From an uncultured Acidimicrobiia bacterium (lineage in GTDB: Bacteria > Actinomycetota > Acidimicrobiia > Acidimicrobiales > AC-14), in contig CAWIIV010000007.1 in NCBI GenBank assembly GCA_963836205.1, positions 32,001 through 96,000 of the forward strand: a stretch of 64,000 nucleotides of DNA, given 5' to 3'. The translations under genes and the position numbers were made by a program. This document shows, in pieces, positions 228 through 6,266 of this stretch. Under the pieces are notes generated by a model that was not told where the DNA came from, did no database searches, and saw only the letters and a program-made list of their open reading frames with translations. The stretch's first letter is position 1. The number at the start of each line of letters is the position of its first letter.

Positions 228-2414
228 CTAGCCTCCTCCGAGGGTGCCCGGCGTGGGGAACGGCGGGGACTCGTTGTTGGGGTCCCCGGTGGCGGTGGAT
301 GGCGGCGCGTGGGGGGGACCAGGGACGGCTTGGACGGTAGTGCCCCCGGTGATGATGCGGAGCGGGGGAGGGGCGGGGGCCAGCTCCAGCCCTTCGAGCT
401 CCGACGGTTCCATCAGCCGCCGGGCCCGCCGGCCCTTCATGGAATGTCGTCCCCACCAGAGGGCGAGGAACAGGGCCGCCCCGATGGAGATGGCCAGCCC
501 CACGCCCGACGTGGCCGTGGAGCGGACGGTGAGCCGGGCCCGGCCCACGATGAGGTCGCCGTCGGGCGACTCCAGTGTGATGCGGATGGGGAAGGTGCCC
601 GACGTCCGGGCCACCACGGGGAAGCGGTGGGTGGTGTTGAGCCGGGTGAGGTCGATCTCCAGCCGGGCGCCGCCGGGGAAGTCGAGCTTGTCGCTCTCCA
701 TCCGCACCACCACCTTGACCGGGTGGCCGGTGTGGTTCTGGAACGTCACCGGGATCTCCCCCTCGCGGGAGGTGAGGGTGATCGACCGGTCCTGGGGCAT
801 GACGATGCCGCCCAGCTGCTCGTCGATGGCGTCGCCCACGCCGGCCAGGTAGGGCTCCCGTTGGCGGACGGAGCGGAAGTCGGCCGACTCGGTGACGAGC
901 AGTCGCTCGCCGAGGTTGCCCGACACCGCGTTGGTCGGCCCCAGGACGGAACCGAGGGCGTCGAGGCGGCGCCGCACGGAGCGGATCTCGTCGACCAGCC
1001 CGGTGAGGCTGCCCCCGGGGTCGACCACCGGCCGCCGGACGAGGGGTTCGCCCAGGTCGGTGGCGTCGGGCACGGTGGCGAACAGGTCGTCGAGGCCGAT
1101 GGCCGCCACCACCGGGTGGTTGGCCAGCCCCGCCCGGAAGGTGTCGAGGAACACCCGGTCGGGCTGCCACTCCCGGGGGGCGAGGGCCACCACGCCCCGA
1201 TCGTCGCCGGGCAGGTCGAGGTAGAGCACGGCCAGGTCGGCCAGCAGGTGGCTGGCCTGGAGGGCGGGGTTGGCCTTGCCTTCCTGGTCTGGGCCGGCGA
1301 AGTGGGCGGTCAGCCCCGCGTCGGCCGCCGCCCCGTGCACCGTCGACCGTTCGCCGTCGAGCTGGAACGGGCCGGTGAGGGTGACGAGCTGGTCCGGGAT
1401 GGGGCTGAGCCCGGCCTCGGTGGCCACCACCTGGTCGACGCCGTAGCGGCCGGCGAGCAGGTCGATCGAGGCCGCGTCGAGCGGTTCCTGGGCCACCCAC
1501 GTGCGGCTCACCGGCTCGGGCACCCGGAGGACCTCGCTCAGGGTCGTCGTCCCCCGCTCCATCTGCAGGGCGACCTCGTCGTCGAGGCCGGCGGCGCTGA
1601 GGGCGGGCAGGCTGACGGGGACGTAGGTGCCGCCGATGAGCGACCGGTCGGACACCGCTTCCCGGAGCGACGTGAGCACGACCCCCGCCCGGGGGTCGTT
1701 GCTTGCCACCAGGGAGGCCACCGTCTCCGGCGTGGGGACGAACGACACCGGCAGGCTGCCGGCGGCGTCGATGGCGAGCGCCAAGCCGGCCAGCTCGGTC
1801 TCGTCCGGGCGGCGGCGGGTGCCGTCGGGCTGGAGCGCGGGCTGGTCGTGGATGGGCAGGACGACGGCGACGCCCAGCTTGGGCCCGATGTGCTCGCCCG
1901 GCAGGTAGACGAGGTGGGTGACGAACTCGTCGAGCACGTCGAAGTCGTCGCGGTCGCGCAGCTCGACCCGAACCGGGTGGACGCCGTCGCGGAAGCCGAG
2001 GCCGGCGGTGACGGCCACCGAGTAGTCGCCGTTGGGCTCGGGGTTGAGTCCGCCGAGGGGGAACACCGCCACCGGCAGCTCCGGCTCGCCGAAGATGCGG
2101 TTCTCGAGCGTCTCCTGGAACTCCGACCGGAAGGCGACGGCGGCGTACACGCTCACCGCCACCTCCAGGTTCGAAGGCCCCGTCGGCCGGGTGACCTTGA
2201 AGCGCACGCCCCACTGCCCGTCGGCCACGGCCACGTACGGGGTCTGGGCCACGAAGTCGATCGCCCCCGTGCCCGTGCCCGTGCCTGTCGGCTGGGTGCG
2301 GGCGGCGGCGCGGGCGGCGGCGGCGGCGGTGGTGGTGGCGGCGGTGGTCGCCACGGCGAGGACGATCGCGGCGGCCACGAATGCGGACGCCGTCCGGCGG
2401 AGTTGCGTCGTCAC
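228..2414 (-). CDS. DUF6049-like secreted/membrane-anchored protein
   Basis: 728 aa, signal peptide, C-terminal Ig-like segment (ITLTSREGEIPVTFQN) and TM helix. Matches the conserved actinobacterial protein found near cca. Confidence 0.7.
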   Translation of the reverse strand: MTTQLRRTASAFVAAAIVLAVATTAATTTAAAAARAAARTQPTGTGTGTGAIDFVAQTPYVAVADGQWGVRFKVTRPTGPSNLEVAVSVYAAVAFRSEFQETLENRIFGEPELPVAVFPLGGLNPEPNGDYSVAVTAGLGFRDGVHPVRVELRDRDDFDVLDEFVTHLVYLPGEHIGPKLGVAVVLPIHDQPALQPDGTRRRPDETELAGLALAIDAAGSLPVSFVPTPETVASLVASNDPRAGVVLTSLREAVSDRSLIGGTYVPVSLPALSAAGLDDEVALQMERGTTTLSEVLRVPEPVSRTWVAQEPLDAASIDLLAGRYGVDQVVATEAGLSPIPDQLVTLTGPFQLDGERSTVHGAAADAGLTAHFAGPDQEGKANPALQASHLLADLAVLYLDLPGDDRGVVALAPREWQPDRVFLDTFRAGLANHPVVAAIGLDDLFATVPDATDLGEPLVRRPVVDPGGSLTGLVDEIRSVRRRLDALGSVLGPTNAVSGNLGERLLVTESADFRSVRQREPYLAGVGDAIDEQLGGIVMPQDRSITLTSREGEIPVTFQNHTGHPVKVVVRMESDKLDFPGGARLEIDLTRLNTTHRFPVVARTSGTFPIRITLESPDGDLIVGRARLTVRSTATSGVGLAISIGAALFLALWWGRHSMKGRRARRLMEPSELEGLELAPAPPPLRIITGGTTVQAVPGPPHAPPSTATGDPNNESPPFPTPGTLGGG

Positions 2415-3145
2415 GGCACCAGGCTGCGGTGAAGGACGGCCAGGTTGGACGGCTCCTCCCGGAAGCCGATGCGGACGTAGAGGGCCAGGGCGGCATCGTT
2501 GCCGAACTGGGTGTTGACCACCGCCCGCTGGACGCCCCGTCGCCGCAGCCAGCGCAGGCCGTCGAGGGCCAGGGCCCGGCCCACGCCCGTGCGCCGGGCG
2601 CCGACGGCCACCGCCAGCCGCTGGAGGTAGCCCTGGTCACCGGCCCGGCCGGTGATGGCGTAGCCCGCGATCCACCGGCCCCCTCCGCCGGTGGCGACCC
2701 GGAATCGGGTGGACGGGGTGGCGGTGAGGGCCTCCTCCAGCCCGGCCCGATCGAGCCGCCAGAAGGGGCTGAAGGAGCCGGCGTCGACGTCGAGGATCGT
2801 GTCGTAGTCGGCCGGGGCCGCCTTGCGCAGGTGGTGGGGGCCGACCGCGGGCCGGTAGGGAACGCCGACCAGGTCGTGGCCCAGGAAGCGGAGGTGCTCG
2901 TGGGGAAGGAACCCGACCGCGAGGAACGGGCGCTGCTCGCTGCCGGCCAGGGCCGAGGTGATGACCTGGGTGTAGCCCCGGTCGGCGAGCTGGTCGAGGC
3001 ATCGGAGGAGGAAGTCGGCCGAGGGCGGCGGATCGTAGGGGAGGGGGGCGAGGTAGGCCACGTGACCGTCGCCGCGCCACGGGCCGGCGCGGGCCCGCTC
3101 CCGGCCCCATTCCAGGACCTCGGTCGTGACGGTCATCGGTGCCAT
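2411..3145 (-). CDS. GNAT family N-acetyltransferase
   Basis: GYLQRLAV..ARRTGVGRAL (acetyl-CoA motif A) and NTQFGNDAALALYVRIGF (motif B). Start at 3145 or 3136. Overlaps the next gene by 4 bp. Confidence 0.85.
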   Translation of the reverse strand: MAPMTVTTEVLEWGRERARAGPWRGDGHVAYLAPLPYDPPPSADFLLRCLDQLADRGYTQVITSALAGSEQRPFLAVGFLPHEHLRFLGHDLVGVPYRPAVGPHHLRKAAPADYDTILDVDAGSFSPFWRLDRAGLEEALTATPSTRFRVATGGGGRWIAGYAITGRAGDQGYLQRLAVAVGARRTGVGRALALDGLRWLRRRGVQRAVVNTQFGNDAALALYVRIGFREEPSNLAVLHRSLVP

Positions 3146-3212
3146 CGAGGATACCGGCGGGCGACCGGAGAGCATCGGTCGCCGCCGATCGCCGCCCCCG
3201 CCCACCCCCCCT

Positions 3213-3257
3213 TTGGGTGTGCAGTCGTGTCGGTATATCCACCACAACCGCACAACC
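3213..3257. repeat. imperfect inverted repeat (REP-like hairpin)
   Basis: GGTGTGCAGTCGTG...CACAACCGCACAACC in the divergent intergenic region. Confidence 0.4.
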
Positions 3258-3293
3258 AACCGTGCGAACGGAGTTCCCGGAGACGGCGGTCGG

Positions 3294-3309
3294 TAGCGTT
3301 GTCGCCATG
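3294..3309 (+). promoter_or_regulatory. -10 box TAGCGT with ATG 7 nt downstream (leaderless-type start; probable 5' exon)
   Basis: TANNNT at 3294-3299, ATG at 3307-3309, no Shine-Dalgarno in between. Confidence 0.55.
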
Positions 3310-5267
3310 TTGCGTCCTGAGAACTGGACCAGACCAGCGGGTGCGAGTCCCGCCCGGGTAATCGCCGGAGAGCCCGGTAGCAGGCCCCGGTTCGTCGCCG
3401 AGAGGCGGCGGGCTGAGCGGGGCGTCAAGAGCCTCTTTGGAGGGAGCAAGCGTGCGGGCCGTAGTGCCACCAGGCGCGAGTCCTGCAGCCTCGTCAAACG
3501 CACAACGGGGGAGCCGAGCCGCTCATGTCACGGCGAAGGCCACGTCCGACCGACTGGCGTTCCGGACACGCCCCTGGTCGGGTCCCCTCGGGGTACGGGG
3601 AGCGGCACGTACGCACGGTCAGGTTCGGAACAGGAGAGACCCGTCTGCGCAGCCTCGTCAGCAAAGACCGCTCGTATAAGCCAGTGGTGAAATCGAGCGG
3701 AGCGCAGCGGGAGTCCGACGGGGTCGTAGTACCGCTGATCGCCGGGATGAACCCGGCGGGAGGGAAGGGCCCCGACTTCGGTCACGCCGGAGACGGAAGT
3801 AAGCGCCAGGGCATGGCCGGGAACGCCCGGCCCAACTCCCCCGGCGGGCAGCCGCCCACCGACAACGTGCGAAAACTCCAGAACCGGCTATGGGCTGCGG
3901 CCAAGCAGTCTCCGGGTCGCCGCTTCCACGCCCTGTTCGACCGAATCCACCGCAGTGACGTGCTGTGGACGGCGTGGGAGCGGGTGCGAGCCAATCGTGG
4001 CGCCGCCGGGGTCGATCGACTGACCCTGGAGGCGGTGGAGGACTACGGGGTCGGGCGCGTGCTCGACGAGCTTTCCCGTGACCTCCGTGCAGGCACCTAC
4101 CGCCCGTCGCCTGTTCGGCGGGTGGAGATCCCCAAGCCCGACGGCCGGATGCGGCCCCTGGGCATCCCCACCGTGCGCGACCGGGTGTGCCAGGCGGCAG
4201 CCAAGATCGTCCTCGAACCCATCTTCGAGGCCGACTTCCTGCCGACCGAGCTTCGGTTTCCGACCGAAGCGCTCGGCCACCGACGCCCTGGAAGCCATCC
4301 GGGTGTCCTTCCCCCGAGGACGGCAGTTCGTCTTCGAGGCCGACATCCGCGACTTCTTCGGCCAGATCGACCACGACAGGCTGCTGTCACTGGTCGGCGA
4401 GCGCGTGTCGGACCGGCGGGTGCTCAAGCTCATCCGCCAGTGGCTGCGTGCCGGGGTGCTGGTCGAGGGGGTGCGCTCCGAGACGGTCACGGGCACGCCC
4501 CAGGGCGGGGTCATCTCCCCGCTGCTGGCCAACATCTACCTGCACGCCTTCGACCGGTCCTGGGCCGAGTCCGGCACCGGCGAGCTCGTCCGTTACGCGG
4601 ACGACTTCGTGGTGCTGTGCACGACCCGCAGCCAGGCCGAGACGGCCCAGGCCAGGGCGGCGGCCCTGCTGGGTGATCTCGGCCTGAGCCTGCACCCGGA
4701 CAAGACCCGTGTGGTCGACCTCCGGGAGGGCAAGGAGGGCTTCGACTTCCTGGGTTGTCATCTTCACGCCCGCATGTCGGGCCGGTTGTGGGAACAGCAG
4801 CGGGTCATCCGCTACTACCTCCACCGCTGGCCGTCGCAGCGGTCGATGAAGCGGGCACGACAGCGGGTCAAGGCCCTCACCGGCCGGAACCGGGTCGGCA
4901 TGGAGTTGGAGGACGTGATCTACGACCTCAACCTGTTCCTGCGGGGGTGGGGCAACTACTTCCGCACCGGCAACGCGGCGAATAAGTTCGTCTCCCTCGA
5001 CCGACACGTCGTGTGGCGGCTCAAGCGCTTGCTCATCAAGAAGCGGGGCCGCAACCTACGGGCAGGCCAGGCAGACTGCTGGACCCGCACCTGGTTCCAC
5101 GGCCAGGGCCTGCATCAGCTCATGGGCACCATTCGCTACCCGAAGGCGTCGTAACCATGTCCAGAAGATCGTCGGAAAGCCGTATGCGGGAAAACCGCAC
5201 GTACGGATTGAAAGGGGGATGGGGAAACGTGCTGGCCTTGCCGGCAACGCGCCCCTGACTACCAATG
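3310..5267 (+). mobile_element. group II intron (IIB-like ribozyme plus RT/maturase ORF) inserted at the start codon of the deacetylase gene
   Basis: 5' TTGCG at 3310. Domain V AAAGCCGTATGCGGGAAAACCGCACGTACGGATT at 5176-5209 (AGC triad, AC bulge). Domain VI with candidate bulged A5261. Removing 3310-5267 (or 3309-5266) restores GCC-ATG-GCT-GTG in frame. Confidence 0.92.
3813..5154 (+). pseudogene. ltrA: group II intron reverse transcriptase/maturase, no endonuclease domain, one +1 frameshift near 4248
   Basis: RT0 (AWERVRANRGAAGVD), RPLGIPTVRDR, (S)FGFRP, EADIRDFF, GTPQGGVISPLLANIYL, RYADD, FDFLG and X domain (LRGWGNYF), split across ORFs 3525-4676 and 4078-5154. Confidence 0.9.
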
Positions 5268-6266
5268 GCTGTGCTGGTCGAGAGCTCGCCGGCGTGCAAG
5301 GGGCACCGTCCCGGCGGGGGCCATCCGGAGCGTCCCGAGCGGCTCGACGCGGTGCTCGCCGGCGTGCGTTCGTCGCCGGTGGCGGACGCGGTGGTGTGGG
5401 CCGAGCCCCGGGTGGCCACGTTCGACGAACTGGCCCGGGTGCACCGGCCGGCCCTGGTCCAGGGCCTCGAGCGGTTCGTGGCCGGCGGTGGGGGATGGAT
5501 CGACCCCGACACCGCCGCCTTTCCCGGCTCCTGGGACGCCGCCCTGCGGGCCGCCGGCTCCGGCCTCGACGCTGTCGAGCGTCTCGAACGGGGGGAGGCC
5601 GACGCCGCCTTCTGCGTGGTCCGGCCACCCGGCCACCACGCCACCCCCACCGAGCCAATGGGGTTCTGCCTGTTCAACAACGTGGCCGTGTGCGCGGCCG
5701 CCCTGGCCGAGCGCGGCGAGCGGGTGGCGATCCTCGACTGGGACGTCCATCACGGAAACGGCACCCAGGACGCCTTCTACGCCGACGGCCGCATCCTCTA
5801 CGTGTCCACCCACCAGTCGCCCTTCTATCCCGGCACCGGTCGCTTGACCGAGACGGGCACGGGTGACGGGGAGGGACTCACCGTCAACCTCCCCTTCCCG
5901 GCGGGGACGACGGGCGACGCCTACCGGGCCGCCTTCGACGAGGTCGTCGGGCCGGTGGCCGAGCGCTTCGCCCCCACGTGGGTGCTCATCTCCCTCGGCT
6001 TCGACGCCCACCGGGCCGATCCGCTGGCTTCGCTGGCCCTCTCCTCCGGTGACTACGGGTGGCTCGTCGCCCGATCCGTCGCGGTGGCGCCCGCCGCCGG
6101 CCGCACCATCGCCTTCCTGGAGGGCGGCTACGACCTCGACGCCCTCACCGCGTCGGCCGCGGCCTCGGTGTCGGCCCTCGACGGTGTCGTCCACGACCCG
6201 GAGGCACCCACCACCGGCGGTCCCGGGCGCGACGTGGTCGCCGCCGCCCGCCGGCTACATACCTGA
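5265..6266 (+). CDS. histone deacetylase family (Zn-dependent deacetylase)
   Basis: [47 protein letters not shown]. Confidence 0.95.

Follow-up and report, generated by a model that had tools for sequence, protein, structure and literature searches.

A group II intron lineage at start codons and the pairing code by which it would find leaderless gene starts

How a retroelement might find the first codon of many unrelated genes is the question raised by a 64,000-nt stretch of DNA (the window) from an uncultured Acidimicrobiia bacterium (assembly GCA_963836205.1, contig CAWIIV010000007.1, positions 32,001 to 96,000). A group II intron of 1958 nt, TTGCG...CCAATG, lies at window positions 3310-5267 on the plus strand. 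Directly before it stands the ATG (3307-3309) that starts a histone-deacetylase-family gene, whose 3' exon begins at G5268. From a comparison of this intron with its copies and relatives we consider it likely that a mobile IIB-like group II intron finds leaderless gene starts by a code of three pairings, of exon-binding site 2 (EBS2) with a hexamer upstream of the start codon, of EBS1 with N'RTG (R, purine), and of EBS3 with the first base of the 3' exon (+1). The intron and the exon features concerned are the following.

3310-5267, plus strand: group II intron (Rfam matches, eight genomic copies, a precise empty site, and the register given by outgroups and a lariat-like contig)
3294-3300, plus strand: -10-like hexamer TAGCGT (3294-3299) and T3300, of which 3296-3300 are intron-binding site 2 (IBS2) (position before the start codon, covariation, orthologues)
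3306-3309, plus strand: IBS1, formed by C3306 and the start codon ATG 3307-3309 at the very end of the 5' exon (copies, pairing, orthologue empty site ATG GCC)
5268-6266, plus strand: 3' exon, with the remainder of the histone-deacetylase-family gene (Pfam Hist_deacetyl at residues 20-304, 2.8e-89)

Over 3335-3469 the core of domain I is recognized by Rfam RF02003, whose score of 91 bits exceeds the gathering score of 49. The source genome (25 contigs, 71.5% G+C) holds eight copies of the intron at different sites, five nearly identical ones (subfamily 1) and three of a ca. 90%-identical subfamily (subfamily 2), one of these being cut by a contig end. In two genomes of the same genus the orthologous genes (L090 and L091, 89% and 87% identical) have only one ATG at this place, in ATG GCC GT, which makes the intron a clean insertion; judging from its copies at different sites and from precise empty sites, it is mobile.

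Pairings between domain I and the exons

The comparison covered 88 loci, namely the eight copies of the source genome and 80 loci from other genomes, taken among the matches listed (at least 599 stretches) and encoding relatives of the intron protein with 93-48% identity; their hosts belong to Actinomycetota, Myxococcota, Pseudomonadota, Planctomycetota, Acidobacteriota and other phyla. Junctions were assigned by the motif [G/T][T/C]G[C/T]G, located 150-330 nt upstream of the EBS1 hairpin and preceded by TG; the hairpin motif was found in 81 of the 88 loci and the TG-preceded motif in 70 of these. After removal of L048, a false parse of a truncated locus, 69 start-type loci were left, 66 of them with enough flank for the exon comparisons. 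The TG at exon positions -1 and -2 is fixed by the junction rule and does not count as independent evidence. Start codons at the 69 sites are ATG (54), GTG (14) and TTG (1), in agreement with a preliminary description of the window, which had placed the intron family at start codons, and many unrelated host genes carry introns at this position. The elements of domain I to be considered are:

3497-3501, plus strand: EBS2, AACGC in the unpaired strand GUCA-NANNN-ACA (covariation with the hexamer, consensus fold, outgroup EBS2 at the same site)
3513-3540, plus strand: EBS1 hairpin, with EBS1 as C3524 A3525 U3526 G3527 in the 9-nt loop 3522-3530 (conservation, covariation, folds)
3596, plus strand: EBS3, C3596, the partner of G5268, with which the 3' exon begins (covariation)
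3365-3370, plus strand: candidate alpha, loop CCGGAG (complementary to 3560-3565; comparative test weakly positive)
3560-3565, plus strand: candidate alpha', loop TTCCGG of the next hairpin (comparative test)

The hairpin consists of GCC (3513-3515), GA, GCCG (3518-3521), the loop CTCATGTCA (3522-3530), CGGC (3531-3534), GAA and GGC (3538-3540), that is, GCC-GA-GCCG-CUCAUGUCA-CGGC-GAA-GGC, with CAUG at 3524-3527. The preliminary description had located it correctly, as well as TTCCGG at 3560-3565 and CCGGAG at 3365-3370. Folded as a single sequence the hairpin is no better than its shuffles (z = -0.88; 20 of 100 shuffles fold as well), and its almost invariant stem offers no covariation of its own; in the enclosing stem, where columns 245-250 of the alignment face 328-333, each pair has 13-42 double changes. 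At a relaxed threshold, a partial match to Rfam RF02005 (39.2 bits, sub-threshold, 3487-3594) draws the hairpin exactly. The RNAalifold consensus and the RF02005 alignment draw different outer stems, and both leave 3494-3506 unpaired.

Loop positions 3 and 4 are C-A in all 69 loci in which the intron follows nTG and in none of 11 other loci, in which it does not follow TG. Between loop position 5 and exon -3 a pair is formed at 65 of 66 sites (U:A 51, U:G 9, C:G 5; a single U:U is unpaired), and between loop position 6 and exon -4 at 62 of 66 (G:C 47, A:T 4, T:A 3, T:G 6, C:G 2). For loop positions 7-9 against exon -5 to -7 the paired sites (29, 34 and 18 of 66) are no more than expected by chance, and an extension of EBS1 to -5/-7 is ruled out by this lack of pairing. 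None of 10000 shuffles of the sites reached the EBS1 pair count, either overall or within two structural groups. In outgroup loci (L070, L071, L073, L077 and L081) the homologous loop pairs over 5-7 bp, ending at the base before [G/U][U/C]GCG. The loop is identified as EBS1 because of its position, its homology and its covariation, and the earlier proposal of a minimal EBS1 is thereby upheld. Within the 69 loci the loop triplet CAT is constant at C-A, its third base being U or, in five loci, C; all five CAC loops sit at GTG. As these comparisons have it, the EBS1 of the start-codon lineage is cut down to 4 bp (C-A-Y-N with N'-R-U-G; Y, pyrimidine), three of them with the start codon, and its third base, U or C, accepts exon A or G, so that both ATG and GTG are read. 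As a side speculation, CUCAU of the loop may resemble the 5' side of the initiator-tRNA anticodon loop.

Mutual information (MI) was scanned between every domain I column and every flanking exon position. With the exon anchored on the hexamer, hexamer base 5 and position 3499 share 0.98 bits and are paired in 92% of cases, hexamer base 4 pairs with 3500 in 70% and the base after the hexamer with 3497 in 76%, and the invariant A3498 pairs with the invariant T6 of the hexamer in 63 of 63 sites. The exon partner of EBS2 is thus the 3' half of a TAnnnT hexamer, 8-13 nt upstream of the junction. The pairs amount to 243 against 175.5 in shuffles (0 of 10000 reach it), and the three variable positions alone to 150 against 90.2 in within-group shuffles (again 0 of 10000). 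In the window copy, A3497-C3501 can pair with T3300-G3296 over 5 bp. In the consensus fold GUCA-NANNN-ACA forms no pairs, and the outgroups have at the homologous site an EBS2 of 6-8 nt matching exon -8 to -19. On the other side of the junction, C3596 and the first base of the 3' exon share 1.53 bits and are paired in 97% of cases (n = 59); in the hexamer-bearing subset 53 of 55 are paired, against 24.3 in shuffles.

The complementarity of 3365-3370 and 3560-3565, which had been likened to an alpha-alpha' pair, fared less clearly: the longest complementary run averages 5.69, while shuffles average 5.28 and attain the observed value in 0 of 300 cases, UCGGU/ACCGA being one of the variants seen, and an alpha-alpha'-type contact is weakly supported by this comparison.

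The preliminary description had seen no other exon complement in domain I and had limited recognition to 3-4 bp, so that start-codon specificity would come from the pairing of the loop with AUG as the sole recognition, with no EBS2. EBS1 is truly just 4 bp, and no 6-nt exon complement is seen in the single sequence; nevertheless, this explanation is very improbable, given the significant covariation at 3497-3500 and at 3596, and C-RTG is too frequent to confer specificity. The five subfamily-1 copies share TAnCGT at a fixed distance: all of them are among the only 43 TAnCGT-N5-6-C-RTG sites of the source genome, where 3205 sites are found if TA is not required, and 17 free sites of this kind with G at +1 remain. 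A further element covarying with the exon, which had been named beforehand as an argument against the EBS1 proposal, is present in A3497-C3501, and this argument applies in part. EBS1 contributes to start-codon targeting as had been proposed, and EBS2 and EBS3 also read the promoter/start-codon module; it is because the three sites read it together that the intron would be targeted to start codons. The DNA target deduced from these pairings is TA-nnnT-n, 4-6 unpaired bases, and N'-RTG^N (^, junction).

The hexamer and the starts of the host genes

TAnnnT precedes the start codon in 63 of the 66 sites, at a spacing of 6 nt in 38, 7 nt in 21 and 8 nt in 4, and the three sites without it are near misses. 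Intron-less orthologues of the host gene have TAnnnT 6-10 nt upstream of the start codon in 9 of 9 cases, which indicates that the hexamer belongs to the genes and not to the intron. Leaderless promoters have this same geometry. Full-length Pfam domains begin at residues 4-22 in 9 of 9 tested 3' exons; since they begin so near residue 1, the sites are true gene starts. A cultured strain, Embleya sp. NBC_00896, has both of its copies at TACGGTg-N5-CATG^A, as its EBS2 (CACU) and EBS3 predict. In mycobacteria, according to PMC4633059, nearly one quarter of transcripts are leaderless, and for translation an RTG at the start of the transcript is both required and enough, TTG and CTG working poorly. 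This leaderless RTG rule matches what a CAY loop can read.

Two side observations concern the host gene of the window. The window copy (L001, Acidimicrobiia) and L024, from a genome labelled Melainabacteria, both lie at the start codon of a histone-deacetylase-family gene; their intron proteins are 65% identical and their host proteins differ at the N-termini. Upstream, a divergent open frame (2411-3259, minus strand; acetyltransferase-like by eye) has its likely start near 3140-3150, which would place the host promoter in a short divergent intergenic region.

It can also be the case that the hexamer is an intron-binding site only, made of IBS2 and a protein contact, with no promoter involved; the genes would then not be leaderless and the start-codon position would be a by-product. 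A3498 and its neighbours do pair with the hexamer (A3498 with T6), no promoter passed the consensus scan, and one intragenic copy also has the hexamer at the right distance. This copy (L004, contig C17) interrupts a histidine-kinase gene within HATPase_c, at profile position 82 of 111, after SIVRAV (GTG), and has TATCGT 7 nt upstream although the site is not a gene start. We nevertheless regard a hexamer without promoter function as unlikely: 9 of 9 intron-less orthologues retain it ahead of the start codon, EBS2 pairs with neither T1 nor A2, the spacing ranges over 6-8 nt in the manner of -10-to-start distances, and the 9 tested sites are all true N-termini. The invariant T1, A2 and T6 are, moreover, the positions of the textbook -10 element.

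On the other hand, the pattern could have arisen by selection alone if insertion at N-RTG were promiscuous and copies behind a promoter, in a dispensable position, survived and spread. Survivorship must contribute something, and ectopic copies such as L006 and L004 exist. Selection, however, predicts neither the complementarity of a variable intron segment with the hexamer nor the hexamer at the intragenic L004, for which ca. 1.3% would be expected, and as a full explanation it is improbable. Direct recognition is preferred to survival because of the base-for-base complementarity, the 43 versus 3205 sites, and the hexamer of L004.

Borders, branching and intron protein

The ATG is duplicated at both borders of the intron, which leaves a 3-nt ambiguity of register from the DNA alone. 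The features that bear on it are:

5177-5210, plus strand: domain V (RF00029 match of 37.8 bits; nhmmer conservation)
5213-5263, plus strand: domain VI with predicted branch A5261, CUA-CC, the hyphen following the branch A (by eye; permuted RNA contig of run X18)
5265-5267, plus strand: intron-terminal ATG, in frame with the 3' exon (ends parsed in 59 loci)

Domains V and VI match RF00029 at 5175-5259 with 37.8 bits, against a gathering score of 40, and nhmmer finds this segment kept in 82 of the 88 loci. A5261 is the 7th base from the 3' end of the intron. A GTGCG at 3262 was considered as the 5' end and is ruled out, since all copies diverge upstream of 3307.

If the splice sites were shifted upstream by one to three bases, into the start codon or ahead of it, this would suit the ATG or GTG found at both junctions, and a shift of one base would give an invariant G1 and an A-U 3' end. 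Several lines of evidence make such a register hardly probable. The EBS1 pairing of the outgroups ends exactly before [G/U][U/C]GCG (in L081 the intron starts with UCGCG after exon A), and EBS1 and EBS3 flank the G^N junction. The 3' ends of outgroups L071 and L077 are CUA-CCUCAC^, like CUA-CCAAUG^ here, with the branch A six bases from the end. In addition, a 472-nt permuted contig from a soil metatranscriptome run (X18; depth 3.9) contains domain V, 26 letters identical to the domain VI of subfamily 2, T at the predicted branch A, and then the intron from its base 1 onward, so that the branch A is connected with the base corresponding to window 3310. Reverse transcription across a 2'-5' link usually leaves one substitution at the branch, and the contig is a hint of branching in vivo. 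The other intron-matching RNA contigs contained no transcript starts and no spliced exons. In the sequencing runs searched for intron words no run had more than 0.16 of the words, and no claim is therefore made on habitat or expression. Registers shifted into the ATG are thus rejected on the outgroup pairings and 3' ends, and the borders are set at AUG^[G/U]UGCG...CCAAUG^N on account of these and of the X18 contig.

The 59 parsed 3' ends are CCAATG (53), CCAGTG (4), CCCATG (1) and CCTATG (1). As the terminal codon is in frame, codon 2 of the interrupted gene is still immediately preceded by a start codon; GATG is also the end of outgroup L073, whose site is no start codon, so the terminal ATG may be inherited rather than adaptive. 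Covariation of the terminal RTG with EBS1 was considered and rejected: L017 and L084 combine CAC with AGTG, but L053 and L058 combine CAU with AGTG, and L014 and L027 have CAC loops with AATG. At the 5' border, the reading frame of the host start codon runs on into the intron and has no stop for 127 codons, to 3690 (open frame 3139-3690); on an unspliced leaderless RNA the ribosome would run through domain I, and the open frame may be due to chance at 71.5% G+C.

3813-5154, plus strand: gene of the intron-encoded protein, reverse transcriptase (RT) and maturase with no endonuclease domain (profile matches; frameshifted in the window copy)

The protein gene, placed in domain IV between the matches to domain I and to domains V and VI, has an unbroken frame of 446 aa in L003 and L004, and the L003 protein matches RVT_1 (1.7e-36) and GIIM (1.6e-16). 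No endonuclease domain was found in it, only RVT_1 and GIIM being matched, and the protein ends soon after domain X. A search of plasmids with the intron protein gave matches named 'ltrA' only, with no class label. In the window copy the frame is broken by one extra base near 4245, which could reflect decay or, the element being repeated, an artefact of assembly; the window copy and L002 share this base and a cluster of substitutions (4236-4273) relative to L003-L005, and L005 has a different 1-nt deletion, near 3873.

An unrooted FastTree tree was made with 69 proteins, 13 of 82 rows (the 88 loci minus six near-identical own copies) being dropped for want of a 300-aa open frame with YADD. L070, L071, L075, L076, L077 and L081 are on one branch, with support of 99. 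Five of the nine rows labelled 'other' are on this outgroup branch (L071, L075, L076, L077 and L081), and so is L070, labelled start-type but with 7 bp of EBS1 pairing. The remaining four (L023, L048, L069 and L086) fall among the start-codon introns. Of the four, three were wrongly parsed or come from truncated loci ending in CTACCAATG, and L086, whose locus stops before domain VI, has a long, unsafe branch. The tree allows a single origin of the start-codon introns. Two relatives may contain nested elements: the intron of L015, 2789 nt long, has ca. 0.8 kb of additional sequence separating domain I from the protein gene, and in L023 domain V lies ca. 2 kb past the end of the protein gene.

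Proposed mechanism and relation to known introns

In the proposed mechanism the hexamer would be the -10 element of a leaderless promoter. The pre-mRNA would start at AUG or one base earlier, so that the RNA 5' exon would be only 3-4 nt long, and this would explain the short EBS1. Because IBS2 would not be transcribed if the gene is leaderless, the EBS2-IBS2 pairing would serve DNA homing only. Splicing would proceed by branching at A5261, and the leaderless mRNA would be restored.

In its full form, the proposal is that IBS2 lies in promoter DNA that is never transcribed, that EBS2 acts on DNA only, that the RNA 5' exon is a bare start codon, and that the intron particle reads the non-template strand opened by RNA polymerase. 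The last idea comes from the fact that EBS2, the gap of 4-6 nt, EBS1 and EBS3 span promoter positions -9 to +4, the melted stretch, and the particle, having no endonuclease, would read a pre-opened strand. This combination is tentative, and we give it a minor share of the probability.

A number of observations weigh against these proposals. Leaderless expression is deduced from promoter geometry and conservation in orthologues, and a sigma-70 consensus scan of 3150-3350, which also demands a -35 match, found no promoter. Among the sites, L004 lies inside the histidine-kinase gene, L016 is at TTG, four sites mismatch at -4, and L006 (contig C6, subfamily 2) follows CATG with TAGCGA instead of TAnnnT and has only a 19-codon open reading frame downstream; the latter is probably an ectopic insertion. 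EBS2 pairing is imperfect, with 5, 4, 3 and 2 bp in 18, 23, 17 and 5 of 63 sites, respectively; a pairing of 3501 with hexamer base 3, found in only 30 of 63, was discarded, and T1 and A2 of the hexamer are invariant, yet no partner was found for them in the intron. The termini are unusual (5' UUGCG in the window copy, GUGCG or UCGCG in relatives, and 3' AAUG) and depart from the consensus 5' GUGYG and 3' AY, the intron ending in AUG instead of A-pyrimidine; the outgroups have termini of the same style. Finally, a single contig of depth 3.9, derived from a relative, provides the lariat evidence, and the window copy, its protein gene being frameshifted, would need protein from another copy.

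If correct, the mechanism would provide a testable code by which a retroelement is guided to the first codon in many genes that are unrelated: CAYN for N'RTG, NANN for the -10 hexamer, and one base for +1. It points to a splicing substrate with a 5' exon of 3-4 nt and suggests a division of labour, EBS2 being used for DNA homing only. The introns could mark leaderless promoters in uncultured bacteria, and so short and modular a code might become a tool to tag or switch leaderless genes. Since relatives exist in cultured strains with complete genomes, such as Embleya sp. NBC_00896, the code can be tested at the bench.

Our literature searches found no link between group II introns and leaderless genes or -10 elements, although an earlier mention is possible; in the literature searched no description of the targeting rule was found, group II introns linked to start or stop codons being already known as such. 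The lineage is best filed, on sequence grounds, as an IIB-like group II intron with a protein that has no endonuclease domain, of which RmInt1 is a studied example. It shares with introns of this kind an RT and maturase (X) protein without HNH/endonuclease domain, several copies in the genome, an EBS1 in a terminal loop, an EBS2 upstream in domain I, and a separate EBS3. It differs from them in that EBS1 is a fixed CAYN of only 4 bp, EBS2 is of ca. 4 bp and separated by 4-6 unpaired bases from IBS1, with IBS2 overlapping the -10 hexamer, and, instead of a single sequence, a whole class of sites is targeted, leaderless gene starts. Absence of the endonuclease domain is described in PMC3552965 for intron-encoded proteins of classes D, E and F and for unclassified varieties.

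A position within or next to the initiation or termination codon is also known from a IIB1 clade (Avi.groEL, EcKTE56.groEL). According to PMC12584367, introns of this clade are found in proteobacteria and home to one gene by a mechanism stated there as unknown; they have a CL1 RT with an endonuclease domain, a subdomain Ia of 300-700 nt at domain I's base, and canonical IIB1 pairings including EBS2a. The protein of the window intron, in contrast, has no endonuclease domain, its lineage has many unrelated targets, and the window copy has no such insert, with ca. 30 nt from its 5' end to the conserved GGGUG motif; its distant relatives L034-L063 carry a short extra segment (some tens of nt) at the place of subdomain Ia. 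Group IIC introns, as presented in PMC12584367 and PMC3753933, have no EBS2 and recognize an upstream DNA hairpin, either a terminator or attC. The intron studied here resembles them in its short EBS1-IBS1 pairing, in its protein without an endonuclease domain and in the use of a generic genomic signal as the target. Unlike in group IIC, no terminator-like hairpin was found before the site (consensus scan of 3150-3350), an EBS2 covaries with the exon, and the signal would be a -10 hexamer together with a start codon.

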